A DNA stretch of 64,000 nt from an uncultured Candidatus Saccharibacteria bacterium (GCA_964642305.1 CAZXOE010000005.1:13369-77368); one strand, 5' to 3'; positions 4,424-63,757 are shown, counted from the first letter of the stretch. Translations and numbers: made by a program. The notes: generated by a model from the sequence alone, not told the origin.

Positions 4424-5779
4424 CTACCCAATAAACGTAAGCGCCTTGCCTTTCTGCCCCGCTCTTCCGGTACGGCCGATGCGGTGCACATAGTCATCAT
4501 AGGTTTCAGGAATATCAAAGTTGATAACGTGCGATACGCCGGCAATATCAAGACCACGAGCAGCAACGTCTGTTGCAACGAGAATCTGCGCCATACCTTT
4601 TTTGAATGTATCTAGGGCGCGCTGACGCTGACCTTGATTTTTATCTCCATGAATCGACTGCGCTTTGAAACCTTTTTTACCAAGAGCCACCGAAAGCTTT
4701 TCTACACCGTGCTTTGTACGTCCGAAGATGAGAACTTTCTTAAATTCTGGCTGAATCAAAAGGTCGTGAAGCACCTCAAGCTTGTCCTCACCCGCTTTGA
4801 TTTTCACGACATCCTGCTCCACGTTCTTTGAAGTGTCTTGAGTCTTCACCGAAACCATCACCGGCTCCTTGAGAAAATCTTTAATGAGCACAGCAATCTC
4901 TGGTGAGAGTGTCGCTGAAAAGAAAAGTGTATGACGTTCCTTTGGCATAAGCGCAAGCATATAACGCATATCATGAATAAATCCCATGTCCAGCATTCTG
5001 TCTGCCTCATCCAAAACTACTGATTTGAATTCTGCGAGGTTGATGCACTTGCGTTCAATCAAGTCCTTTATACGTCCTGGTGTGCCAATAATAAAGTTAT
5101 GCTGATAGCGAAGGTCGGAAATCTGACGACCAATAGCCGCGCCACCAACGCAACACACCGAGAAAATCTTGAAGCCTTTTACAAAGCCTTTGAGTTCCAT
5201 TTCAATCTGCTGAGCGAGCTCGCGTGTTGGAGCCATCACAATCACCTTCTCCTTTGGATTTGCGAGGACTTTGTTGATAAGCGGAATAAGAAACGCGGCT
5301 GTCTTACCAGTACCTGTATTTGAAATACCCACAAGATCGTGTCCGTGCAAGATGTGCGGAATAACGCGGTCCTGAATAGGAGTTGGCGCTTCGTATCCTT
5401 TCGCAAGAATATTTGCCTTCAAACGCTCGTCGATTATGAAGTCCCTGAACAAGTGTTCAGGAGTAAAAACAACTGCTTCTTCGGTAATGACTGTTTTATT
5501 AATAAATTTTGAGATATCGATGTGCTGACCCTTTCTTGGGCCGCGCTTCCCACCTCCCCTACTAGAGCCTCCACGTGACGCGTTGAAAGAGCGTCCCAAA
5601 GGAGGACGAGAAGAAAAAGAGCGTGCGCCTGAAGGACGAGCACTTGAGTGAGTACCAGAGCCTCGGCTTGAGGACGAGCGTGGAGATGAGCTCGATGACC
5701 CACTTGTGCGTGGTCGTGACGAGCTCGAATGAGGACGGCCTGACCCAGCACCCCTACTAAATGTTTTTTTATGTTCCAT
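4424..5779 (-). CDS. DEAD-box ATP-dependent RNA helicase with an N-terminal S/R/G-rich low-complexity extension of about 95 aa
   Basis: Q motif GYEAPTPIQ, motif I GTGKTAAF, PTRELA, DEAD, SAT, HRIGRTGRAG. Confidence 0.9.
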   Translation of the reverse strand: MEHKKTFSRGAGSGRPHSSSSRPRTSGSSSSSPRSSSSRGSGTHSSARPSGARSFSSRPPLGRSFNASRGGSSRGGGKRGPRKGQHIDISKFINKTVITEEAVVFTPEHLFRDFIIDERLKANILAKGYEAPTPIQDRVIPHILHGHDLVGISNTGTGKTAAFLIPLINKVLANPKEKVIVMAPTRELAQQIEMELKGFVKGFKIFSVCCVGGAAIGRQISDLRYQHNFIIGTPGRIKDLIERKCINLAEFKSVVLDEADRMLDMGFIHDMRYMLALMPKERHTLFFSATLSPEIAVLIKDFLKEPVMVSVKTQDTSKNVEQDVVKIKAGEDKLEVLHDLLIQPEFKKVLIFGRTKHGVEKLSVALGKKGFKAQSIHGDKNQGQRQRALDTFKKGMAQILVATDVAARGLDIAGVSHVINFDIPETYDDYVHRIGRTGRAGQKGKALTFIG

Positions 5780-23176: not shown

Positions 23177-23225
23177 ATACTATATGAATAACGCATTATT
23201 AAAAATGATGCAAGGGTTAATCTAA

Positions 23226-24077
23226 TTACTTCCAGTCTACTGATATTGCTATGCTAAAAATCAGAAGAATTATGATCGAGTAGACAAACATCCTGCGCGC
23301 CCAAATTTTGTCGTTTGCTGAATAGAATCCACTTGCTGAAAGACTGAGCCAACCAAAACCAAACACAATCATTACTAAAAAATATGCGTACCCGGCGTAC
23401 CCAAATACTGGAAGCGCGAATAATGCCATCACAAATAGCGCAACATAAATCAATGTCTGCAGTTTGGTGATTTGAATTCCTTTTTTTACGGGGAGAACCG
23501 GGATTCCTGCTTTTTTATAATCTTCTAATCTATAGATGGCAATCGCAAACGAATGTGGCATTTGCCAGAGCGCGAGAATGAAAAACAAAATCACTGCGCC
23601 AAGGTCAATGCTTCCGCTCACCGCCAAATAGCCAACTACTGGAGGCATAGCTCCTGAAATACTACCAACTATAGTTCCGTGCGTTGAGGTGCGCTTGAGC
23701 CACCTACTGTACACAACAACATACACAAAGAGGCCGAGAATTGCCGCAAGTACCGCGAGAAGATTCGTATAAAAATATAAGATGAGAAGACCTAAAATCG
23801 CGAGAACCTTTCCAAAAACGAGCGCGTTTCGTGGAGAAATTGTCCCCATCACCAATGCGCGAGTTTTTGTACGCTCCATAAGTCCGTCTATGTCGCGGTC
23901 AATGTAGTTGTTCATCACACATCCAGAGGCAACCACGAGCGAAAGTCCTGCGAGTGTCGCGAGCATTAGCCACAAATCAATGTTTTTTCCCGAGGCAAGT
24001 AAAAAACCAGCAACAACAGTAATCGCATTGCCACTAATAATCCCCGGCTTGGTGAGTTGGTAATAGTCTTTAATCAA
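23226..24077 (-). CDS. cyoE: Protoheme IX farnesyltransferase (heme O synthase)
   Basis: UbiA-family motif NNYIDRDIDGLMERTKTR; sits downstream of cyoABCD. Confidence 0.85.
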   Translation of the reverse strand: MIKDYYQLTKPGIISGNAITVVAGFLLASGKNIDLWLMLATLAGLSLVVASGCVMNNYIDRDIDGLMERTKTRALVMGTISPRNALVFGKVLAILGLLILYFYTNLLAVLAAILGLFVYVVVYSRWLKRTSTHGTIVGSISGAMPPVVGYLAVSGSIDLGAVILFFILALWQMPHSFAIAIYRLEDYKKAGIPVLPVKKGIQITKLQTLIYVALFVMALFALPVFGYAGYAYFLVMIVFGFGWLSLSASGFYSANDKIWARRMFVYSIIILLIFSIAISVDWK

Positions 24078-24104
24078 ATTAGTAATGATACAGTTCGATA
24101 AAAT

Positions 24105-24377
24105 CTACTTCAAGGAAATCACCTGAATGCCTTTTTCTTGTATATCTTCCAACGGCCAAAATGCTGTCAATTCGTCAATTTTCCACCTGCCGACGTATCC
24201 AACTTTCTTTTCTATTTCTCTACCAGTATAGTTTTTTGTTATTGGGTCCCATTCCTTAAGGAGCAGATTGTCTCCTTCCTCAATATCAAAATCATTGAGG
24301 CGTAGCTCAAAAGTCTTTTTGTTCTCAAGTATTTGTTGAAAATATTCTGGCCAAACTTTTTTCTCTATTTTTTTCAT
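24105..24377 (-). CDS. Small ASCH/DUF3850-like protein inserted between cyoD and cyoE
   Basis: 90 aa; WPEYFQQILENKKTFELR resembles DUF3850 (recalled from memory). Confidence 0.4.
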   Translation of the reverse strand: MKKIEKKVWPEYFQQILENKKTFELRLNDFDIEEGDNLLLKEWDPITKNYTGREIEKKVGYVGRWKIDELTAFWPLEDIQEKGIQVISLK

Positions 24378-24383
24378 AATAAT

Positions 24384-24761
24384 TTACTGCGGAATATATC
24401 CCTCGTTTGAATTTGTGGGGGTCGCGTTCATCATATTGTAATTTAGATTTGCCATAACCCAAAGCGACCCAACGACAAGAATAGCAACGATGATAATTGT
24501 AAAAGTAAGGACGATTATATTCCACTGCGGTTTTGATTTTTTGCTTAAATGAAGAAAGAATATCACCTGCACCAAGAGTTGTGCGACACCAAAAAGAACA
24601 ACTGCCATAACTAAACTTTGCTTTCCAAACATATGATTGACAACAATAAAATATGGGATAAGCGTGAGTATTACAGACAGCGCAAACCCAGTCACGTAAG
24701 AGCGCATCGCAAAGCGACTAGCCTCGTATTGTTCATCAATTACTTTAAAATCATTTTTCAT
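24384..24761 (-). CDS. cyoD: Cytochrome o ubiquinol oxidase subunit IV
   Basis: Three-TM small subunit downstream of cyoC. Confidence 0.7.
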   Translation of the reverse strand: MKNDFKVIDEQYEASRFAMRSYVTGFALSVILTLIPYFIVVNHMFGKQSLVMAVVLFGVAQLLVQVIFFLHLSKKSKPQWNIIVLTFTIIIVAILVVGSLWVMANLNYNMMNATPTNSNEGYIPQ

Positions 24762-24765
24762 ATCA

Positions 24766-25362
24766 TTAAATAGCGCCCATTAGGTATACGAATGTGAAAA
24801 TAAATATCCACACAATATAAAGGAAGTGCCAGAATATGCCTAGGTTTGATATTTTGCCTATCGTCCTCACCGTTAACCCTCTTCTCAGCACCTGCGCAAG
24901 TATGCTCCACATCCAAACAAGTCCTGCTGTCACATGAAGTCCGTGCGTGCCAACTAGCGCAAAAAATCCCGACAAAAATCCGCTCACCTGCCAACTGCTT
25001 CCACTCTGATAAAGCTTCACGAACTCAGACAATTCCATTCCAATAAATGTTGCTCCGAACAAAAATGTCACAACCAACCAAAGAACCACTTTGTCCTTCT
25101 CGTTCTTATGATGCGCGTAAAACGACGCCAGTCCGTATGTGAAACTGCTTGCGAGAAGGACGAACGTTTCCGCAAGGACAAACGGCATACTAAATATGTC
25201 ACTTGCTGACGGCCCACCAAAGGTATTGTTGTGAAGCACAGTATATGTTGCAAAAATCGCGCCAAAAAGCAGAGCATCGCTCATAATATAGACCCAGAAA
25301 CCAAAGAGCGCCTTTGATTCTCTCTTACTTGTTTCTCTTGTGTTTAAAATTTCTGTAGTCAT
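24766..25362 (-). CDS. cyoC: Cytochrome o ubiquinol oxidase subunit III
   Basis: Heme-copper oxidase subunit III pattern; five TM. Confidence 0.8.
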
Positions 25363-27332
25363 AGTAATTGTAATTTTCTCTGTGGGTTTTTTGCTTCTAT
25401 TTTTGCGACCTCGTCCGCTGTTATCACATACTCAGTATCATAATCAAAAGAACGAACAATGATGAGCAAAACAACGCCAACTGCTCCTGCTACAGCAAGC
25501 CACCAAATATGCCATACTAAACCAAATCCAAAAAGAAATGCTGATAGTGCAACATAAAGCCCCATCGCTGTATTTTTTGGCATCTCAATATCCTCATAAT
25601 GAGCTTGCTCTTGCTTGGCTGTGCCGTGCTTCATATCCCAAAACGCGTGGCGTCCATGAACGGTTGGAATAATAGCAAAATTATAAAAAGGTGGCGGGGA
25701 TGCTGTAGACCATTCCAGTGTCCTGCCGTCCCACGGGTCGCCAGTCGTATCCAGATTGTGTCTTCGGTCACGTATACTAATAATGAGTTGTAATATCTGG
25801 AGCGCGACACCAATACCAATAATCACGACACCTGCCATAGAAATATAGAGCATCGGCTCCCATCCAGTCCCAGCATCTATGTGACTCAAGCGACGCGTCA
25901 TCCCCATTAGGCCTACAATATAAAGTGGAACAAATGTCACAAAGAAGCCGATTATCCAGTGCCAAAAAGCAGCCTTGCCCAGCCGTTCGCTCAACTTAAA
26001 GCCAAAAATCTTTGAAAACCAATATGTGAGACCAGCAAAATATCCGAACACCACACCACCAATAATAGTATTGTGAAAATGAGCAATTAAGAACAGGCTA
26101 TTGTGAAACTGAAAATCAGCAGCAGGAACAGATAGGAGTACGCCCGTCATTCCGCCGATAGTAAATGTAAAAATAAAACCAACCAACCAGAGCATCGGTG
26201 AAGCAAATACGATACTCCCGCGAAACATTGTGAAGAGCCAATTGAAAACTTTTACACCAGTAGGGATAGCGATGATCATCGTCATAATACCAAAGAACGC
26301 ATTTACGTTTGCGCCCGCGCCCATTGTGAAAAAGTGATGCACCCAAACCACAAATGACAAAAATGTAATAGCGATGGTCGCGTATATCATTGATGTATAC
26401 CCAAAAAGTTTCTTGCGTGAGAAAGTTGATACGACTTCAGAGAAGATACCAAATGCGGGCAATATTAGGATATAAACCTCTGGATGCCCCCACGCCCAAA
26501 TGAGATTCACATACATCATAGCGTTACCGCCAAAGTCCGATGTAAAAAAGTGCATTCCAAGAAGTCGGTCAAGGGATAGCATACCGAGTGTTGCTGTGAG
26601 AATTGGAAAAGTAATAATAACAAGCGCCATTGACGCAAAAACTGTCCACGTAAAAACTGGCATTCTCATAAGCGTCATCCCATGGCAACGCATCATAAGG
26701 ATAGTCACAAAAAAGTTTATACCCGACATCAAACTACCTACACCCGCTATTTGTAACGCCCAAATATAATAGTCTACACCTACGCCAGGGCTATACAATA
26801 TTCCAGAAAGTGGCGGATATGCGAGCCATCCAGTCGCAGCAAACTCTCCCACGACAAGTGATAGATTCACGAGCACTGCTCCAGCAACCGTGAACCAAAG
26901 ACTGAGCGAGTTAAGAAAAGGAAAGGCGACATCACGCGCGCCTATTTGTAGTGGCACAGCCAAGTTTATGAGCCCAAACATTAACGGCATAGCGACAAAG
27001 AAAATCATAATCACGCCGTGCGCTGTGAATATCTGGTCGTAATGCTCTGGTGGTAAATAGCCAAGTGAGTCACCGATTGACAACACCTGCTGTAAACGCA
27101 TCATCACTGCGTCAGAAAATCCGCGTAAAATCATTACGAAGGCGAGAATAATATACATCACACCTATTTTTTTGTGGTCTAAGGACGTGAGCCATTCTTT
27201 CCAAAGCCACTTCCATCGTTTGAAATAAAACAAAAGGCCGATAATACTGACACCAGCAACAGCCATAAAAATACCAGCTCCAACTGTAAGTGGTTCGTGA
27301 GGAAATGCTCCAAGTGTAAGGTTGCCAAGCAT
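25359..27332 (-). CDS. cyoB: Cytochrome o ubiquinol oxidase subunit I
   Basis: [17 protein letters not shown] and WAHHMF-type His ligands; 657 aa. Confidence 0.9.
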
Positions 27333-27344
27333 AAAATTATTATA

Positions 27345-28241
27345 TTACATGCGCATCTCAGGCATGGACATAGGAACTGACATTTCTCTAGGTATCATAT
27401 ATTTCATTATTATTTTATCATAAAGACTAACTTCAGTGGACGAATAATATGCAACGTTATTATTTCTGCTTTTTTCTGCAAGTTTTTCGTATTCATTAAA
27501 ATTTAAAGTGTCTGGTGACTGTTGTACAATTTGTAACCATTGATCAAATTCTTCCTGAGATGTCGCCTTTGCGATAAATTTCATTCCAGAAAAACCATAA
27601 CCACTATAGTTTGCAGACACTCCATTGTATTCTCCAGCCTCGTTCGCCATTAGATGAAGACTCGTATCCATTCCCGCCATAGCATATATCTGCCCAGCGA
27701 GTTGTGGAATCCAAAATGAATTCATTGGCGCGTCACCAGTGATTCTAAAATGAATAGGAGTATCAACAGGGAATGCTATAAAATTTACAGTTGCAATATT
27801 CTGCTCTGGGTAAATAAACAACCATTTCCACTCAAGTGCCACTACTTGTATCGTGATGGGTGGAATACTTGAATCAATAGGTTTGAATGGATCAAGCTCG
27901 TGGCTACTTACCCATGTCATCCTTGCAATAAATACAATAATTATTATTGGAATAGTCCACCAAATTATTTCAAGTGCATTATTGCTGTGCCAATCAGGAG
28001 TATATTTCGCTTTTGTGTTACTTGCGCGGTATCTCCAGGAAAAAACCGCGAGCATAATGAACACTGGAATGACCACAATTAACATTAGAAGTGTTGTCGT
28101 GACAATGAGATTCATCTCCGCGAGAGCAATAATGCCTTTTGGATTGAACACGCCCATATTGTGAGTGCTGATATAAACGTACAGAAACACAAAAAATACT
28201 AAAATAGCGACGAATAAAATCGCTCGCATATACTTTTTCAT
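27345..28241 (-). CDS. cyoA: Cytochrome o ubiquinol oxidase subunit II (quinol oxidase type, no CuA cysteines)
   Basis: NSFWIPQLAGQIYAMAGM...LHLMANEAG...GFSGMKF closely matches CyoA; lacks the CuA Cys motif. Confidence 0.85.
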   Translation of the reverse strand: MKKYMRAILFVAILVFFVFLYVYISTHNMGVFNPKGIIALAEMNLIVTTTLLMLIVVIPVFIMLAVFSWRYRASNTKAKYTPDWHSNNALEIIWWTIPIIIIVFIARMTWVSSHELDPFKPIDSSIPPITIQVVALEWKWLFIYPEQNIATVNFIAFPVDTPIHFRITGDAPMNSFWIPQLAGQIYAMAGMDTSLHLMANEAGEYNGVSANYSGYGFSGMKFIAKATSQEEFDQWLQIVQQSPDTLNFNEYEKLAEKSRNNNVAYYSSTEVSLYDKIIMKYMIPREMSVPMSMPEMRM

Positions 28242-28283
28242 ACCACCATTTTACCATAAACACCATCAGATAGACATATTGAA

Positions 28284-41051: not shown

Positions 41052-41087
41052 CAAATAGATAATTCTTAATTACGAATTATCTATTGG
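41052..41087 (-). terminator. Hairpin immediately 3' of tRNA-Thr(GGT)
   Basis: AATAGATAATTC-TTAATTAC-GAATTATCTATT. Confidence 0.6.
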
Positions 41088-41094
41088 AGCCGAT

Positions 41095-41170
41095 GTCCGG
41101 GATTGAACCGGAGACCTCGTCCTTACCAAGGACGCACTCTACCAACTGAGCTACATCGGCTTATATTTTA
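41095..41170 (-). tRNA. tRNA-Thr (anticodon GGT), CCA encoded
   Basis: GCCGATGTAGCTCAGTTGGTAGAGTGCGTCCTTGGTAAGGACGAGGTCTCCGGTTCAATCCCGGACATCGGCTCCA. Confidence 0.85.
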
Positions 41171-41554
41171 TTCTCACAGTATAGACAGACGTAGTGTTCA
41201 TGCTTACCTACCAAAACAGCTACATCGGCTTACTATACACCACGACACGATACACTATTTAGCGCATTCTTTCAATCAAAATGATAGCAAAAAGGTCCGG
41301 ATTATCGGATCTTTTGCTACTCCGTCACTTTTATCAACTTTGAGTTACGAAACTCAGGTATTCCTCGTATCGTCTTTGCGAACGAAGTGAAGCAATCTAG
41401 AATTAAGCACGCTACACACTGGATCACTTCGTCAGAGTACCTCCTCGTGAGGACGGAAGAATCAGAGTTTCGTAATTCAAAGTTTATCAAAGCTAAACCT
41501 TGATAAAAGTTTAACAAACTTACGAGAAAGACTTCATTGGGGATAGTATTATTT

Positions 41555-41891
41555 ATTAGCGACGTAGACGAATCACCAGATTCGCGTCTTGGACGAAGAT
41601 AAAAAAGTAATCTTTTTCAGTACTGAGCCGAGGAGCTAATATATGGAGTACCATATAATGACGGCACTCGGACGTTGTGAAAGAGATTACTCATTCACAC
41701 GCTCCTCGTTTGTCATTATAGGTCAATACCGCGTGGTCTCAGCGTCCAAGACGTGAATTTGCTAATTCAGCCACGCTTTTGTACTCGACCTTTAGGTCAT
41801 TCTGGTGAATGAGAAGCGAATTCGAAGTATTTTAGGTCCAAGACCCGAATCTACTGATTCGCCTGCAGTCTCTGCCGCAGGGGCCTATATT
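41555..41891 (+). repeat. Copy A (long form, 337 bp) of a three-copy structured repeat family
   Basis: Shares blocks ATTAGCGACGTAG, GAGCCGAGGAGCTAATATA, GCGAATTCGAAGTATT and the terminal hairpin ...TCTCTGCCGCAGGGGCCTATATT with copies at 46840-46998 and 63598-63757. Confidence 0.8.
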
Positions 41892-41912: not shown

Positions 41913-44840
41913 CTAGAACATTCGGTACTTTATTTTTACAGAACTTCTAGCGCTACACGATGCGGAGCCTGCACCACCAGAGCCAGAGCATGTCCACATC
42001 CATGTCCCCCCATTATCAGAAGGGGTGGAATTACCAGCTGTTGTCGTACAAAGATTTGCAGTCGGCACTGTTGGTGTAGGAGTACCATGAGCGCTACCGC
42101 AAACGCCAGTGATATAACTTAAATTATAAACACGACATAGTGCGTTTGACCCTGTTCCACTATTATTTATTGCCATGCAACCCCATTCATAATACTGAGA
42201 TGTACCTGCTCCCGTAACTGCTGTAGGGGTACCATAGGAGCATAAGTTTGACGTAGGAGCTGTAAAAGAAGGAGTGTCCTCCGCGCTTCCGCACACGCCA
42301 TTTCTAGCAGTGGTGAACGAAACTTCTAGAGAATACCCTGTGCCATGCGAATTTGTTGCGTATCCACGCACGTAATATGTTGTTCCCTGCTGTAGCCCTG
42401 TTACGTTTATTGAATATGCTCCAAGTGTTGCTGGAGGCGCAGGTGTACAAGTTGCGCCGTTTGTATGACTAGGATTATTCATTATCCCATAGCAAACACC
42501 ACGCGCAGAAATTGATGGTGGGGTACGCTTGTGTAAATAAATCTTATTTTTTGGTGAACCTCCCTGGTAATATATTGATTTGCCATCTGGAGAAATTTGC
42601 ATTCCAGAAGTGAAAGAAGCAGAAGCACGGTTGTGCTCATACACAGGAGAAGTGGTGTCTATGCTTCCATCTGCTATACCTCTACGAAAAACAAAGATTT
42701 TGTCGAGAGATAGAAGATCACCAAACCCAAACCCGTAAACAGAATTTCCATCTGGAGATATTTTTATATTATCTATATTTCTACCTAAATTATAACTAGT
42801 TCCACCAGAAAGCAATCCTGTTGTTGTGTCGCGTGAGAACCTAGCTACCGCATTATAAATATTACCACCAATGTTAAGATAATCAGGATCATAAAATGGA
42901 TACACATATTTATCATCTGGTGAAACATAGACTTCCATGCTTGTAGGACGAGGCGCATCGGGGTAAAACACGAAAGTCCTGCCAGAAATCGTGCCAGTAA
43001 TTTGATTTCTAATGAACCTCCAAATCCTACTTGGAGGAGCACCTGATTCGTAATTTGCAGTATACAACGATTTACCATCTGATGAAAATGCGATATCACG
43101 CGCATACGCGGCCATAGTTGAAATATCAATAGTATTGCTCTCATTAGACAATGAACCATCAGCTAAATTTCGTGTACGCAATCTAAGCTTTCCCATGCTA
43201 GAAGTATCAGCAGATGTATATAAATGACTCCCGTCTGGAGATACAATAACCTCATGCGCTACATCAGTTGTTACGTAGGCAATCCTATTTGATAGTGTCC
43301 CATTATTTATATTCCTATCATATTTAACGATATATCTGCCCGTACCACCGGCAATAGAACACCCCGCATACACGTTCTTTCCGTCTGGTGATATAGTGAT
43401 AGGATTATTTATACCAATCGTGCAATTTCCTATATCATAGTTGGAAACATAGGTAAGCTCACCAGATTCATTTCTGTTGTATAAATATATCCCAGCTCTC
43501 TGGTTTGTTACATCGCCAATTGTTACTACATAAAAATGCTTTCCATCTGGCGAAGTAGCATTTGCTTGCAAACTTTCGTTAGTTGTTGCCAATGGTACAG
43601 TATACTCAATATATGGTTCCACCAGCTCCCCGCTGTAAGCTCCAAACGAGGTAACCTCCGCGCCGAGTGTTGCCGTGGTGGCTTTAATATATGTGCTTGT
43701 TGCGTTTATTACTGTAGGCAAAAGAGAAGTCTCTATGACATTTATGCTCGTCCATTCTCCGCAGTTGTTGTCTTCGGCTGTTGCAGGAGATTCAGTAATG
43801 ACACCTCCGCCAGCTGAAGCTGTTTTATCAGCGCACGACCTCACATAATACATACCACCTTCAGTAAATGTGTATGTTGTTGAAGATGCCACAGCGCTTG
43901 TGCCCGCGCCTAGAGCTGGCATTGTTTTAGGAGCAAGGTCGGTAATCGTGCCAGTCGTACTAGTAGCCACCTGAAAGAAATTTGGGAAACTCCCCCCAGT
44001 TGCCCCTGTGCCACTATTTGTTATGGCTGAATAAAAAAGTGTCGGCGAGTCAGTGATTACATTCACAGGGTACGAGGAACCCGCCGTGAGGTCTATATTT
44101 GTGGCTACATAGATACCATTAAAGGTAATCATACCACCAGAAGAAAGAGTGAGAGTTTCTGTTGCAGGTGTTGCGTATCCTGCAACATTCCCCCATGTTA
44201 TTGTGTATGTTCCTGTTGGCTTTGAGGTTGAAGTTTGAGAAGTGCCAGAGCCTGTGATTGTTGCTGGGCCAGTGATGGTCCAAGAGGATGAGATGTTTGA
44301 GGAGACGGATACGGTGCCGGTAGGAGAAGCAACTGTGATAAGGATACTAGAACTTCCGTCAAATCTAGGACTTAAATCATTAACCAGGCAGTCTGGGTCC
44401 TCTGCAGGACACCGTGGGTCACCAGCCCTTTTATAGTAGCTATCTAAATTAATAACATATGCGCCTGGAGTCATTGGAGCAGTAAGTACACCTGAGTGAA
44501 CCAATGTAACAGGATTAGGATTATACGGATGAGATAGAATATCTTCCATATTTTCTAAGTATGCATAATTCCCTTGAAGGGTCACGTAAATAGAATAATA
44601 ATAAAGAAGCTCTATTGGAATAAGTGTAGATAATGAACTGGTAAGATAAATATTTTCTCCTGGAGAAAATATTGTTTTGTTTATATTAACAGTGTAACTA
44701 TTTACATTAGTACCAAGGTAAGGATCTGTGCCCCAATAGGTTACCGCACCCACATCCTCAACTGCTACAATAAAAAACAATAAGGTAAGAAAAGTTGTTA
44801 AAAAGAATGACTTTGTTGTTTTTGTTAGTAGATTCTTCAT
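41913..44840 (-). CDS. Giant secreted surface protein: signal peptide, Ig-like domain shared with the 50058..51221 protein, YVTN-type beta-propeller repeats, Cys-rich C-terminus
   Basis: 975 aa. SPDGK/SSDGK..Y repeats. About 60 aa (SSSWTITGPATITGSGTSQTSTSKPTGTYTITWG) is near-identical to the paralog. Confidence 0.7.
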   Translation of the reverse strand: MKNLLTKTTKSFFLTTFLTLLFFIVAVEDVGAVTYWGTDPYLGTNVNSYTVNINKTIFSPGENIYLTSSLSTLIPIELLYYYSIYVTLQGNYAYLENMEDILSHPYNPNPVTLVHSGVLTAPMTPGAYVINLDSYYKRAGDPRCPAEDPDCLVNDLSPRFDGSSSILITVASPTGTVSVSSNISSSWTITGPATITGSGTSQTSTSKPTGTYTITWGNVAGYATPATETLTLSSGGMITFNGIYVATNIDLTAGSSYPVNVITDSPTLFYSAITNSGTGATGGSFPNFFQVATSTTGTITDLAPKTMPALGAGTSAVASSTTYTFTEGGMYYVRSCADKTASAGGGVITESPATAEDNNCGEWTSINVIETSLLPTVINATSTYIKATTATLGAEVTSFGAYSGELVEPYIEYTVPLATTNESLQANATSPDGKHFYVVTIGDVTNQRAGIYLYNRNESGELTYVSNYDIGNCTIGINNPITISPDGKNVYAGCSIAGGTGRYIVKYDRNINNGTLSNRIAYVTTDVAHEVIVSPDGSHLYTSADTSSMGKLRLRTRNLADGSLSNESNTIDISTMAAYARDIAFSSDGKSLYTANYESGAPPSRIWRFIRNQITGTISGRTFVFYPDAPRPTSMEVYVSPDDKYVYPFYDPDYLNIGGNIYNAVARFSRDTTTGLLSGGTSYNLGRNIDNIKISPDGNSVYGFGFGDLLSLDKIFVFRRGIADGSIDTTSPVYEHNRASASFTSGMQISPDGKSIYYQGGSPKNKIYLHKRTPPSISARGVCYGIMNNPSHTNGATCTPAPPATLGAYSINVTGLQQGTTYYVRGYATNSHGTGYSLEVSFTTARNGVCGSAEDTPSFTAPTSNLCSYGTPTAVTGAGTSQYYEWGCMAINNSGTGSNALCRVYNLSYITGVCGSAHGTPTPTVPTANLCTTTAGNSTPSDNGGTWMWTCSGSGGAGSASCSARSSVKIKYRMF

Positions 44841-45574: not shown

Positions 45575-45579
45575 ATTTG

Positions 45580-45654
45580 CGCGGTCGACCGGACTTGAAC
45601 CGGCAACCTCTCGCGTGACAGGCGAGTGCTACTAACCAGTTGAGCTACGACCGC
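45580..45654 (-). tRNA. tRNA-Asp (anticodon GTC)
   Basis: Acceptor GCGGTCG/CGACCGC, anticodon loop CTGTCAC, T-loop TTCAAGT, discriminator G. Confidence 0.8.
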
Positions 45655-46334
45655 AAATTCTTAAATTTGCCATATTTTTCAAACACAGCCTTCTTCCTAT
45701 CAAGAAAAAGCTTGTTCTTTGTATGACTTCTATGATTATACATAAAATCATAGAATTTCAAAGAGTCTTTTGTGCCAAACTGCAGACGGTAGCAATTTTC
45801 CTTTGGCTGGAAAATCGACCCTCCTTCAATGCCATAAATATTGAGCCTTTTGCGTATACTTTCTAAAAATACTTTTGAACACGAGGTTAATGCCACTTGA
45901 ATGGCAAGGCCTTGAGTTTCCCTCTCTTTATGAGTCACCCCAACCCAAACATTTCCATCACCATCAAAGTATCCTCTGACGAAATCAGAAAAATATTTTT
46001 GAGGGATGATTGGAACGACCAGATTTTTTGTTTTTCGCTCAGAGAAGCCAAGCTCTCTCAAATCCTCACACATCTCAATACTTCCAATCTGTAAACGATA
46101 AAGCGTGCTTTCATTTCCCCGCATAACACGAGTACTAATTTTGTGTTCCGACTGGATAGCTTTACGTATTTGCTCAAGAAGCTTTTTGTCAGTTATTTGA
46201 ATGCACCAAAATTGTCCACCTCGCTTGTTAACAGTAATGTACCCGTCAGCTGCAAAAAAACCTAGCACGTATGACATTTCTGGTGTCCATTTTTTAAAAA
46301 AACCTTTGTTTACTTTTTTTAATACTGGCACCAA
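45645..46334 (-). CDS. LAGLIDADG homing endonuclease (two motifs), free-standing; its 3' end overlaps the tRNA-Asp 5' end by 10 nt
   Basis: LGFFAADGY and RGYFDGDGN motifs. Confidence 0.8.
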   Translation of the reverse strand: MVPVLKKVNKGFFKKWTPEMSYVLGFFAADGYITVNKRGGQFWCIQITDKKLLEQIRKAIQSEHKISTRVMRGNESTLYRLQIGSIEMCEDLRELGFSERKTKNLVVPIIPQKYFSDFVRGYFDGDGNVWVGVTHKERETQGLAIQVALTSCSKVFLESIRKRLNIYGIEGGSIFQPKENCYRLQFGTKDSLKFYDFMYNHRSHTKNKLFLDRKKAVFEKYGKFKNLRS

Positions 46335-46398
46335 GTTATTATATCACGTGACAGGAAAGTATACTAGCCAACAAATTTGCATGCAAATTTTTCTATGG

Positions 46399-46470
46399 TG
46401 CCGATGAGTGGAATCGAACCACTATTTAGGGCTTATGAGTCCCTCGTTCTAACCATTGAACTACACCGGC
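46399..46470 (-). tRNA. tRNA-Met (anticodon CAT; elongator type with G1-C72; a lysidine-modified Ile2 tRNA cannot be excluded)
   Basis: GCCGGTGTAGTTCAATGGTTAGAACGAGGGACTCATAAGCCCTAAATAGTGGTTCGATTCCACTCATCGGCA. Confidence 0.75.
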
Positions 46471-46474
46471 TTAA

Positions 46475-47311
46475 TTAATATTTCTTCTTTACGGCATCAA
46501 TTAGCCCAAGTATCTCATATTTAAGTCTTGAACTTCTTCTTACCTTTAGTGACAAAATACCATAATATGAATCATAATTCTCATAAATCTTTTTTTGATT
46601 CATTTTTAAGAACACCTGATTACCAAACTGTGACTCAGGTAACTGTAACAGAGAAGACCAATATTTGACAACTTTTTTTATTCTTGGGCGGTGAATATCA
46701 TTAATAAATATTCTTGGCATAAAATCTTCATCATTCAGCTGAAACACTTTTTTGAACCACTTTTTCATCACAAGGATGATTTCTGGGTCAGAATTAACAA
46801 TTGCAAGAGCACTTCTATCACTCTTTGTACCCTCGCCCCAATATAGGCCCCTACGGCAGAGACCGCAGGGTAATACTTCGAATTCGCTTCGCTCATACAA
46901 AAGCGTGGCAGAGACCACGCGGTATTGACCTATATTAGCTCCTCGGCTCGGTGCTGAAAAAGATTACTTTTCCAGCACTCTCGCTCTACGTCGCTAATAA
47001 AGACCAACTCCTAGCATCAGTAAGTCTCTTTCTGTCATACGTCCCACAGTTTCTAAGGATTTCTTTTTACTGGCGCTCACGATATCCTGCTTTTTCTTGC
47101 GATTCATTTCAGCACCTATCATCCTGCCTTTATGCCCTGCAAGGATGGAACTCTGTCTAAGTCTACTCGTCTGTTTCTGTGTTAACACAACGCCCTGACA
47201 CCAAATACTTGCGGTTCCTTTTGATACGCCAACATGCTTAGCAATCGATCCTATGCTCCATCCCATTCTTCTTAATTTTTGAGCCCTAATCCTTTCTATG
47301 AACTTAGCCAT
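46475..47311 (-). pseudogene. HTH plus single-motif LAGLIDADG endonuclease gene split by insertion of repeat copy B
   Basis: ORF 46994..47311 ends ...LLMLGVGLY*, with the stop supplied by the repeat. ORF 46475..46918 resumes ...GLYWGEGTKSDRSALAIVNSDPEII. Joined, this gives a LAGLIDADG-like motif LGVGLYWGEGTK. Confidence 0.6.
46840..46998 (-). repeat. Copy B (short form, 159 bp) of the structured repeat family, inserted within a gene
   Basis: The reverse complement aligns block by block with copy C. Confidence 0.8.
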
Positions 47312-47351
47312 ATATATAATAATATCAGCTGTTCTAAAATAAACAAGACAT

Positions 47352-47401
47352 GAATTAAAGAATAACAGGTGTCATTTTAGACACCTGTTATTCTTTAATT
47401 C
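47352..47401 (-). terminator. 22 bp-stem hairpin immediately 3' of tRNA-fMet
   Basis: GAATTAAAGAATAACAGGTGTC-ATTTTA-GACACCTGTTATTCTTTAATTC. Confidence 0.6.
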
Positions 47402-47402
47402 A

Positions 47403-47477
47403 TGGTTGCGGGGGCCCGAATCGAACGGGCGTCTTCAGGTTATGAGCCTGATGAGATACCGCTTCTCTACCCCGCTA
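47403..47477 (-). tRNA. Initiator tRNA-fMet (anticodon CAT), CCA encoded
   Basis: Acceptor and 3' end ...GGCCCCCGCAACCA and the overall sequence closely resemble E. coli tRNAfMet; unpaired 1:72. Confidence 0.8.
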
Positions 47478-56906: not shown

Positions 56907-57398
56907 GTCCGAACCGTCTATTGCGAAAGCTATATCCTCACCTACTGCATACGAGTAAGCTCTCGAGCTTCCTACACTGTCAACACACCAGGAATCTGGC
57001 TCGTTTGCAGGCGCAGGGCCATCTGATGATTTAAGCTGTACGGCAACCGCCCATGTGGTAGCAGTAGCAACACATCTGCTTAGTGATGCTCCACCAGCCT
57101 TTGTGTATGCCTCACTCACTCCTGAAAAGATCTTGGCGTCTGCAAAGATATTTCCTGACGACACTACTGTTGGACAGGTAGACGAAGCGTATTCATTCCC
57201 AGCAGATGCATACTCCTGACTATTGTCATCATACCAAATGCTTGCCATTCCGCGGAGGTTGGTTATGTTGGACTTGATTGCCGCGTCAGTAGCTTTTGTG
57301 CGAGCAGTATTAAGAGACCCCAAAACAACCGATGCGAGAATACCGATGATTGCAATTACGATGAGAATTTCTATTAATGTAAAACCTTTTTTATACAT
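56895..57398 (-). CDS. Type IV major pilin paralog 1; start set at the internal Met
   Basis: [25 protein letters not shown]. Confidence 0.8.
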   Translation of the reverse strand: MYKKGFTLIEILIVIAIIGILASVVLGSLNTARTKATDAAIKSNITNLRGMASIWYDDNSQEYASAGNEYASSTCPTVVSSGNIFADAKIFSGVSEAYTKAGGASLSRCVATATTWAVAVQLKSSDGPAPANEPDSWCVDSVGSSRAYSYAVGEDIAFAIDGSDACR

Positions 57399-57430
57399 TA
57401 TATGGATAATAACATAATCTTTATTTAAAC

Positions 57431-57466
57431 AAAACAAAACCCCGCAGAATTGCGGGGTTTTGTTTT
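57431..57466 (-). terminator. Hairpin terminator after pilin paralog 2
   Basis: AAAACAAAACCCCGCA-GAAT-TGCGGGGTTTTGTTTT. Confidence 0.8.
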
Positions 57467-63591: not shown

Positions 63592-63597
63592 ATGATT

Positions 63598-63757
63598 ATT
63601 AGCGACGTAGAGCGAGCGAAATGAAAAAATAATTTTTTTCATTTCCGAGCCGAGAAGCTAATATAGATATAATACCACGTGGCTCGCCACGTGAACAGTA
63701 CGAGCGAAGCGAGTTCTACCAATACCTCGGGGCTCTGCCCCGAGGGTTCTCTATTTT
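63598..63757 (+). repeat. Copy C (short form, 160 bp) of the structured repeat family
   Basis: ATTAGCGACGTAGAGCGAGCG ... CCGAGCCGAGAAGCTAATATA ... GAGCGAAGCGAGTTC ... CCTCGGGGCTCTGCCCCGAGG. Confidence 0.8.

Follow-up and report, generated by a model that had tools for sequence, protein, structure and literature searches.

We have analyzed a 64,000-nt stretch of DNA from an uncultured Candidatus Saccharibacteria bacterium (GCA_964642305.1, CAZXOE010000005.1:13369-77368; the window), which contains three copies, termed A, B and C, of a structured repeat. The repeat and its relatives in other genomes are probably mobile DNA elements of small size, non-autonomous and site-specific, which seem to be confined to Patescibacteria and in which one strand would fold in order to be copied and would be handled by an enzyme in trans. 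The element is mobile, inserts at a defined target site and conserves its fold. It is asymmetric between its two strands and is widely distributed. Its hub-and-hairpin architecture, with strict TTATT targeting, is a distinctive one.

Three copies in the window and the insertion of copy B

The three copies lie where the original prediction placed them, at 41555-41891 (+) for A, 46840-46998 (−) for B and 63598-63757 (+) for C. The blocks said to be common to them are there: CCGAGCCGAGRAGCTAATATA occurs in all three (three matches in the window at up to one mismatch, and none in 100 dinucleotide-preserving shuffles), and ATTAGCGACGTAGAGCGAG and GAGCGAAGCGARTTC are exact in B and C. We built a covariance model of the first module from unrelated copies. 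Applied to the 64 kb it finds only these three sites, with the scores given in Table 1.

Copy B splits a gene for a helix-turn-helix (HTH) and LAGLIDADG-like protein. Taking out the 156 bp of the copy recreates a protein of 226 aa with a GLYWGEG motif across the junction; homologs of the split gene are 226 aa long, 84-50% identical, and have the GLYWGEG motif invariant. This family has >120 homologs, of which the named ones belong to Patescibacteria or unclassified bacteria. In the homolog of L118 (L-numbers label the stretches compared) the empty site reads GGTCTTTATTGGGGCGA, matching the flanks in the window, GGTCTTTATT-(156 bp)-GGGGCGA. Insertion therefore added AGCG...CCTATATT 3′ of a pre-existing TATT. 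In the syntenic relative L119 the gene is intact and there are no copies of the element in 20 kb. As an insertion into a selfish HTH/LAGLIDADG-like gene, copy B is disruptive. Since the empty site shows that 156 bp were added 3′ of a TATT already present, we have redrawn the limits of the inserted units as 41558-41891, 46840-46995 and 63601-63755. Copy C is a neutral intergenic insertion, located between two minus-strand genes and antisense to both, and copy A is an older composite copy.

Target site and insertion behavior

In 110 copies the 5′ flank is TTATT, at 94-100% per position, with a T-rich gradient upstream, and the 3′ flank has no sequence preference. A strong hairpin precedes about a quarter of the copies, followed in several by a T run. 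In the empty/filled pair of copy B there is a single TATT before insertion and a TATT on both sides after it. Some copies have GATT, AATT or CATT on the 5′ side and TATT on the 3′ side, which argues against a 4-bp target duplication.

An element that inserts 3′ of (T)TATT and itself ends in TATT allows copies to stack head to tail and to nest in each other's hubs. Head-to-tail tandems with one common junction tetranucleotide, TATT or one like it, are found in L080, L045, L076, L112 and L083. Near-identical copies with different flanks occur within single metagenome-assembled genomes (MAGs), in L075/L086, L034/L088 (93%) and L083/L090 (90%), and an identical hairpin 1 is present on several Vogelbacteria contigs.

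Most copies (105/112) are extragenic. Between co-directional genes 34 are in the sense and 13 in the antisense orientation (25:14 at stricter spacing); there is a mild excess in convergent spacers and enrichment near gene 3′ ends. We found no consistent promoter for the copies. The 100 neighboring open reading frames (ORFs) examined are unrelated housekeeping genes of no consistent orientation or position, and the recurrent neighbors form only small clusters of two or three homologs (by Pfam, NusA three times and S15 twice). A tRNA neighborhood, which had been noted for the copies of the window, is not a trait of the family, as 4 of 119 copies lie ≤300 nt from a tRNA gene versus 2.3 expected.

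Eight copies are placed where excision opens a long frame, and two of these are in frame and free of stops. In L077 a 96-nt sense copy (1756-1851) lies in alanyl-tRNA synthetase (AlaRS), giving 32 extra residues, SDVEREQSKRRNEVKFLELPSRGANIRRSASI. In L110 a 99-nt antisense copy (5374-5472) gives 33 residues in a YfhO-like membrane protein. Copies of this in-frame, stop-free kind are those that would remain if random insertions into needed genes were filtered. The AlaRS of L077 also seems to contain a further large insert of ~140 residues (~225-365), between two matches to the catalytic-domain profile.

Architecture of the unit

The layout is TTATT / AGC-GA-C-GUA-G-A-GC-GA-G-N-(hairpin 1)-C-GA-GC-C-GA-G-GA-GCU-AAUAUA-(domain 2)-UAUAUU /, with slashes at the limits of the unit, and the size runs from ~72 to >330 nt. 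In helix P1, (T)ATTAGC is paired with GCTAAT(A). Between P1 and hairpin 1 both strands are nearly constant in sequence, and the sequence of hairpin 1 is free. From our reading of the alignments, domain 1 would be a purine-rich rod, with hairpin 1 as its cap, made up of a GUA/GA loop, two bulges and two loops of tandem G·A.

The hub AATATA is complementary also to the 3′ terminal TATATT (helix P2), and domain 2 is therefore only a loop of 4-10 nt in the shortest copies (72-90 nt). Longer copies (~100 nt) have one GC-rich hairpin added. The form adopted by B and C (150-160 nt; ~20 of 109 copies) has two hairpins, each following an AATACC-like motif, that flank a mini-hairpin C-GA-GC-GAA-GC-GA-G. 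Domain 2 thus ranges from a 4-nt loop up to several GC-rich hairpins plus nested units, and the lengths are not 3-periodic (35/109 copies). There are no terminal inverted repeats. On comparing the 5′ end, (TT)ATTAGCGACG, with the reverse complement of the 3′ end (AATATAGGCC, AATAAAGG or AATAAAAGCG) only a few bases are common. The sole inverted pair is ATTAGC/GCTAAT, which lies inside the unit, where it closes domain 1.

Conservation of the fold and strand asymmetry

In 99 distinct module-1 sequences 93.9% of cells hold standard pairs, versus 35-48% with slid partners. Double changes affect 13 of 24 pairs, in 199 cells against a shuffle mean of 46.5, and none of 500 shuffles reaches the observed value. 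The claim that the stems vary on both arms while remaining complementary is thus borne out by covariation. The stems quoted earlier for hairpins 1-3 of B and C are also correct, and the differences between the two copies are compensatory. One strand of P1 is fixed by the search pattern, so it is invariable in this set. Compensated P1 helices are found in copies retrieved by the model (L083, L061 and L027: TATAAAC/GTTTATA, ATTGAC/GTTAAT and TATAATCAC/GTGATTATA).

Hairpins 2 and 3 were compared copy by copy; MAFFT alignments misplace hairpins of unequal length. The compensatory types include GCGTGG/CCACGC, ACGCCCC/GGGGCGT and CACGTGG/CCACGTG for hairpin 2, and CCTGCGG/CCGCAGG, CTCGGGG/CCCCGAG and CCCCAGG/CCTGGGG for hairpin 3. 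Copies that have plainly decayed are found alongside the compensated ones. The original prediction had named copies with broken stems and no compensatory changes as evidence against itself, and decayed copies are indeed found in part of the family (hairpin 1 of copy A; L090, L095 and L080). Single insertions would be expected to decay in this way in a mobile element whose active lineages keep the fold.

The two strands are not equivalent. In module 1 there are 50 G·U or U·G cells versus 16 A·C or C·A cells, and because of this excess, and of the conserved, purine-rich internal loops, it is one particular strand that must fold, RNA and single-stranded DNA giving an equal signal. For copy B the top strand has an RNA folding energy of −65.8 kcal/mol (z = −4.7) and the bottom strand −48.0 kcal/mol; the corresponding values for folding as DNA are −32.0 and −27.1 kcal/mol. 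The minimum free energy of copy C as RNA is −59.3 kcal/mol (z = −5.8). Selection had been placed at the level of RNA. That the stems are selected on one strand stands, but RNA is not proven as the molecule.

Copy A is a composite

Four internal insertions were originally described in copy A; we count five extra segments instead. The first, second and third, at a minimum, are met again in copies of other genomes, and these three are therefore modules of the family rather than private insertions. Copy A belongs to a larger subtype, the extra parts of which recur with compensated stems in L012, L091, L113, L021, L092 and L072.

The second segment is a nested unit of the sister type, on the minus strand. 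On that strand it is preceded by TATAAT and terminates in TATATT, followed by the host sequence AGCTCC. The same unit with covarying stems is present in L021, L072, L091, L092 and L113, and in L092 and L005 it is matched by our model R1, on the opposite strand. The minus strand of the host hub reads CC-TATATT/AGCTCC, and in L092, L072 and L091, where this is clearest, the nested unit lies 3′ of TATATT and itself ends in TATATT. These junctions provide a second filled/empty comparison, which follows the same insertion rule.

The first segment, mini-module 1, has its equivalent at the same place in L012, with a compensated stem (GAACT-AGCA-AGTTC), and L091 has a mini-module identical to 41741-41769. 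In general such a mini-module is 26-30 nt in length and consists of GTCCAAGAC plus a 5-bp hairpin GAAYY-NNNN-RRTTC. There are three in copy A, in both orientations, and others outside full elements in other genomes (L027 934; L091 272 and 362). The mini-module may be a still smaller nested mobile unit.

Distribution and novelty of the family

The family was collected by a scan for an exact 19-nt core, GAGCCGAGRAGCTAATATA, using one genome per species. This core occurs in at least 114 stretches from ~66 species-level assemblies, nearly all labeled Patescibacteria and covering several classes. The labels are Yonath-, Vogel-, Nomura-, Wolfe-, Taylor-, Komeili-, Doudna- and Shapirobacteria, ‘Saccharibacteria’ and Minisyncoccia. 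Copies are present on at least 12 contigs of one Vogelbacteria MAG, and between related genomes the copy number varies from 0 to >12. The family appears to be confined to Patescibacteria. One copy is found in L020 (CAZPMS010000002.1), a 181-kb contig of a MAG labeled ‘uncultured Gammaproteobacteria bacterium’, which is either a mislabeled or misbinned Patescibacteria contig or the sole copy seen outside the group.

Hairpin 3 of copy B (CCCTGCGG-TCTCTG-CCGCAGGG) and its domain 2 scaffold are nearly the same in L023, L027, L012 and L049, from MAGs labeled Yonathbacteria and Shapirobacteria. This suggests recent horizontal spread of sub-lineages between distant Patescibacteria, or binning errors.

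That the repeat family was previously unannotated agrees with our searches. A search of Rfam (4227 families, including introns, ribozymes, repeats and sRNAs) gave nothing on the copies at gathering thresholds, and only chance-level hits of ≤15 bits at E up to 10. Phage records gave no match, and neither conserved block is present in IMG/VR. In the literature searched, including for the core sequences as text, we found no paper that quotes the core blocks or describes such a repeat. The family appears to be undescribed, and unusually widespread and conserved for repeats of this kind.

How the element may move, and alternative explanations

In the mechanism that we favor, one strand would be folded for copying, most likely as single-stranded DNA, and a trans-acting enzyme would handle the folded strand by a ‘peel and paste’ logic like that of IS200/IS605. 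The hub sequence AATA(TA) would pair either with the TATT that precedes the element or with the TATT at the 3′ end of the element, and so could provide a guide for both junctions. Its tetranucleotide AATA has its complement in the 5′ TATT and again in the terminal TATT. In two variant lineages (L083 4094 and L027 628) the hub, 5′ flank and 3′ end are all TATA, and the nested units of copy A, L113 and L021 have the hub ATTATA and are preceded by TATAAT. The addition of one TATT per insertion suggests the hypothesis that target choice and the marking of both junctions are functions of the hub. A more far-reaching proposal is a new class of mobile element, in which the hub would guide both junctions, the G·A rod would dock a conserved Patescibacteria protein or be catalytic, retargeting would occur by hub change, as the TATA-TATA-TATA variants hint, and the copies would mark gene flow between distant lineages. 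We regard this as a distinctly unlikely extension.

A number of observations weigh against a mobile element handled in trans and guided by its hub. An ORF-bearing, i.e. autonomous, version is absent among element halves lying >140 nt apart in ~0.85 Mb around copies. No recombinase family is among the 25 commonest of the 121 Pfam families in the 100 neighboring ORFs, and tblastn with approximate IS200/IS608 TnpA queries found nothing in ~1 Mb around copies. Nor is any copy present at 80 loci of homologs of the transposase-like genes described below (383 kb of metagenome contigs). The hub-guide hypothesis draws on few independent variants (the L083 and L027 types), and composite units are inherited together. 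The left junction TATAAT of the nested units in A, L113 and L021 is a poorer fit to the TATATT rule, and their 3′ ends also fit less well. A duplication of 1-3 bp may be compatible with the data, both junctions reading (T)ATT. Lastly, ~40 unpaired core nucleotides are near-identical across class-level lineages, which is unusual for selfish DNA and suggests either that horizontal transfer is frequent or that a function or partner in the host is conserved; sampling by an exact 19-mer overstates this conservation.

[quoted passage not shown] A gene family is not supported, in view of the two orientations (34 sense and 13 antisense), the lack of a consistent promoter, and the one gene that is broken and two that are read through. 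The MITE-like behavior holds, in the form of a disruptive insertion with its empty site, recent copies within genomes, nesting, tandems and the absence of a link to neighbors. The copies could, nevertheless, be functional RNA modules that are transcribed and bind a conserved Patescibacteria protein, or act as terminators, stabilizers or insulators, mobility being only their means of spread. This partly overlaps the explanation by mobile DNA, and we consider it rather unlikely on balance. It would account for the unpaired nucleotides of domain 1 being the most conserved, and in our reading the tandem G·A pairs and the GUA/GA loop (like a bulged-G or loop-E motif) resemble elements of RNA-protein recognition. 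The G(CUUG)C loops of hairpins 2 and 3 presumably correspond to a common stable RNA tetraloop. It is also favored by the excess of G·U over A·C, the far better RNA fold of the top strand, the sense bias between co-directional genes, the enrichment near gene 3′ ends with terminator-like hairpins within B and C, and a core that is identical in very distant lineages. However, about a third of the copies, A and C included, are antisense to their neighbors, and there is no consistent promoter, gene family or position. The copy number is erratic between related genomes, one copy destroys a gene while others are translated through, many are decayed, and Rfam offers no match. Moreover, DNA too gives stability to tandem G·A pairs and to the d(GCGAAGC) mini-hairpin. 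Co-transcribed copies will surely fold as RNA, and a secondary role for that RNA at the level of the host is possible.

Movement or removal through RNA is a further alternative, the element being either a retro-element copied into T-rich sites or an intron-like insert excised at TATT junctions to leave genes functional. Reading frames are restored when exactly 156, 96 or 99 nt are taken out from between TATT contexts that are identical, and the pairing of the hub with both the upstream, exon-like TATT and the 3′ end is formally like that of an internal guide. The hairpin that precedes about a quarter of the copies, with its T run in several, recalls the site preference known for class C group II introns. 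Yet there is no signature of a reverse transcriptase or ribozyme, nor an Rfam match to an intron or ribozyme. The copy in L110 is antisense to its ORF and still in frame and stop-free, fitting translation through the insert and not splicing. Lengths are not in general multiples of three, and the majority of copies lie between genes. Copy B brings in-frame stops into a selfish gene that is dispensable, most simply a knock-out. We therefore think RNA-mediated movement very improbable.

These bacteria do have genes like those for the transposases (RAYTs) associated with repetitive extragenic palindromic sequences (REPs). The only Y1 genes seen, in the DNA around copies and the 80 homolog loci, are RAYT-like and unlinked to the element. 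One (L104 7138-7806; PF01797 with E = 1.4e-15; NF047646 at 66.7 bits, below its cut-off of 80) adjoins a truncated copy, and another is present in L031. A REP/REPIN-type repeat mobilized by such an enzyme would be in keeping with this juxtaposition, with the GTAG 5′ of hairpin 1 (7 nt before it), with the mostly extragenic location, and with the compensatory hairpin changes, which have been reported for REPINs (PMC3116915). The possibility is largely refuted, and we give it almost no credence. On either side of the RAYT-like genes lie inverted repeats of another kind, which are their own (GGGGACAGTCACGATTG and GGGGGTCAGGTACCC). In metagenomes there are 156 loci homologous to the RAYT-like gene; none of 80 loci around homologs has a copy of the element, and a RAYT is therefore not the partner. 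Moreover, the unit, at 72 to >300 nt, greatly exceeds a REP in length and complexity, and its free stems and fixed loops are the reverse of what REPs exhibit.

The repeat that does accompany these genes, GGGGACAG(K)CAC(S)ATTG (in L031 and L033, GGGGGTCAGGTACCC), is a second, unrelated family, and the RAYT-like Y1 genes lie between inverted copies of it. It occurs at L104 7085-7890, L031 1860-2600, and L033 840-1880 and 3104, being multi-copy in L033, and it looks like a REP/RAYT system of Patescibacteria.

Features and genes of the window

The genes of the window are cellular. They include ligA (NAD-ligase), gatC/gatA, prfA, ftsE/ftsX, pyrG, type IV pilus genes, pilins and a cytochrome oxidase cluster, and the closest named relatives are Paceibacterota (Patescibacteria/CPR, the candidate phyla radiation). 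Its proteins have exact matches in metagenome assemblies. A phage origin, considered for genes nearly all on one strand with scattered tRNAs, is ruled out by the cellular genes and the lack of a phage match. The features of the copies are collected in Table 1.

Four tRNA genes (Asp, Met, Met, and Thr further on) are interleaved with free-standing homing-endonuclease-like ORFs at 45579-47476. The ORFs in question encode a LAGLIDADG_3 protein at 45645-46334 (−) and the HTH + LAGLIDADG-like protein whose gene copy B splits. At ~23200-28250 (−) there is a cluster for a cytochrome bo-type terminal oxidase (COX_ARM, COX1, COX3, COX4_pro and a UbiA-like heme O synthase). Patescibacteria are generally described as fermentative, so this cluster is unusual. 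Rfam isrJ is matched at 57390-57461 (+) in the pilin gene region, with 38.1 bits against a gathering score of 37 and E = 0.002. isrJ is an Hfq-binding sRNA of Salmonella, and the match is probably spurious in this organism.

Table 1. Positions of the three copies of the element, their parts and adjacent features in the window
Feature	Position	Strand	Remarks
Copy A	41558..41891	+	334 nt, 3′ of TTATT at 41553-41557; elaborated, partly decayed; 43.6 bits
Copy A, core block	41558-41568	+	
Copy A, hairpin 1	41595-41624	+	lower stem broken
Copy A, hub	41625-41643	+	
Copy A, hairpin 3	41862-41881	+	
Copy A, 3′ end	41882-41891	+	
Copy A, five extra segments	41569-41594, 41644-41720, 41741-41769, 41784-41809, 41832-41861		
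Mini-module 1 of copy A	41569..41594	+	hairpin GAATC-ACCA-GATTC, then GTCTTGGAC
Nested sister-type unit in copy A	41644..41720	−	77 nt; exactly at the hub
Related mini-modules in copy A	41741-41769, 41832-41861		opposite orientation to 41569-41594
Small double hairpin in copy A	41784-41809		
tRNA-Thr beside copy A	41085-41160	−	copy A antisense to it
975-aa ORF beside copy A	41913-44840	−	its stop next to the copy; copy A antisense to it
Copy B	46840..46995	−	intact long form, 156 nt; 92.5 bits
Copy B, target TATT	46996-46999		
Copy B, block AGCGACGTAGAGCGAG	46980-46995	−	
Copy B, hairpin 1	46951-46978	−	
Copy B, hub	46931-46950	−	
Copy B, hairpin 2	46903-46920	−	
Copy B, GCGAAGC mini-hairpin	46883-46894	−	
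Copy B, hairpin 3	46849-46870	−	
Copy B, 3′ end GCCTATATT	46840-46848	−	
HTH + LAGLIDADG-like gene	46475..47311	−	copy B divides it into two ORFs, of 105 aa and 147 aa
Copy C	63601..63755	+	intact long form, 155 nt; 91.8 bits; TTATT at 63596-63600
Copy C, hairpin 1	63618-63645	+	
Copy C, hub	63646-63665	+	GAGAAGC variant
Copy C, hairpin 2	63676-63693	+	
Copy C, mini-hairpin	63701-63713	+	
Copy C, hairpin 3	63725-63745	+	
Copy C, 3′ end GTTCTCTATT	63746-63755	+	

Relation to known elements and significance

The probable mobile element described here most resembles, in its traits, the IS200/IS605 elements and the palindrome-associated transposable elements (PATEs). Like these it has no terminal inverted repeats and no evident target duplication, inserts 3′ of a fixed short sequence, has hairpins near both ends, depends on one particular strand, and contains internal sequence complementary to the junction tetranucleotides. 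The 5′ TTATT, the absence of inverted repeats and the subterminal hairpins are of the PATE type, and the nested and tandem copies obey the same pattern. It differs from them in that no Y1 transposase is linked to it in the DNA around copies and at the 80 RAYT homolog loci, a single hub could serve both ends in place of two separate guides, and its stems are free and the flanking loops fixed; modular growth and a pan-phylum core are not described for PATEs. The element is small, non-coding and multi-copy, as MITEs are, but a classical MITE, i.e. a deletion derivative of a DDE transposon, is ruled out by the missing terminal inverted repeats.

The Rickettsia palindromic elements (RPEs) are likewise small palindromic repeats in host-dependent bacteria of reduced genome, with a mobilizing mechanism that is unknown, and they too occur both between genes and in frame within protein-coding, even essential, genes, as our copies do in L077 and L110. 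There is no sequence relation, however; most of our copies are intergenic and not 3-periodic, copy B brings stops, and several classes are spanned. To our knowledge RPEs are confined to one genus. With BOX, RUP and SPRITE of pneumococcus, Correia/NEMIS of Neisseria, the enterobacterial repetitive intergenic consensus (ERIC) and REP/BIME/REPIN the element has in common that it is multi-copy and mostly extragenic, has optional modules, folds strongly, shows biases of orientation and toward 3′ ends, and is likely to affect transcripts where it is co-transcribed. In contrast to it, Correia, RUP and ERIC have terminal inverted repeats with duplications of TA or similar, REPs are short and linked to RAYTs, and all of these families are specific to a species or genus. 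Integron attC sites resemble the element in having a conserved paired base, fixed unpaired or extrahelical positions, a variable terminal hairpin and a folded single strand; they differ in that our element has no integrase or cassette array and a different core, and its copies are dispersed and also lie inside genes.

Arrays of tandem interspaced guide RNA (TIGR) and IS110 bridge RNAs were also considered. These are structured, repeat-containing RNAs from Parcubacteria with internal loops flanked by helices; the loops are variable and bear the guides, and they lie next to a Tas or IS110 gene, in tandem arrays (PMC12045711). Both are ruled out for our family, in which the loops are invariant, the stems variable and the copies dispersed, and Tas and IS110 are not among the commonest Pfam matches of the 100 neighboring ORFs.

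The main significance lies in a repeat family that is common to many lineages of Patescibacteria and has a core conserved almost to the nucleotide. The usual description of these bacteria is of streamlined genomes with little mobile DNA. If the mechanism that we propose is true, the element would be a simple marker of horizontal exchange among Patescibacteria that cannot be cultured, one reason why contigs break and genes are split in their MAGs, and a natural example of in-frame insertions in essential genes. It would possibly also be a compact, guide-like system of site-specific insertion. If instead the copies function as RNA, they would join the small number of structured RNA motifs that only this radiation has.

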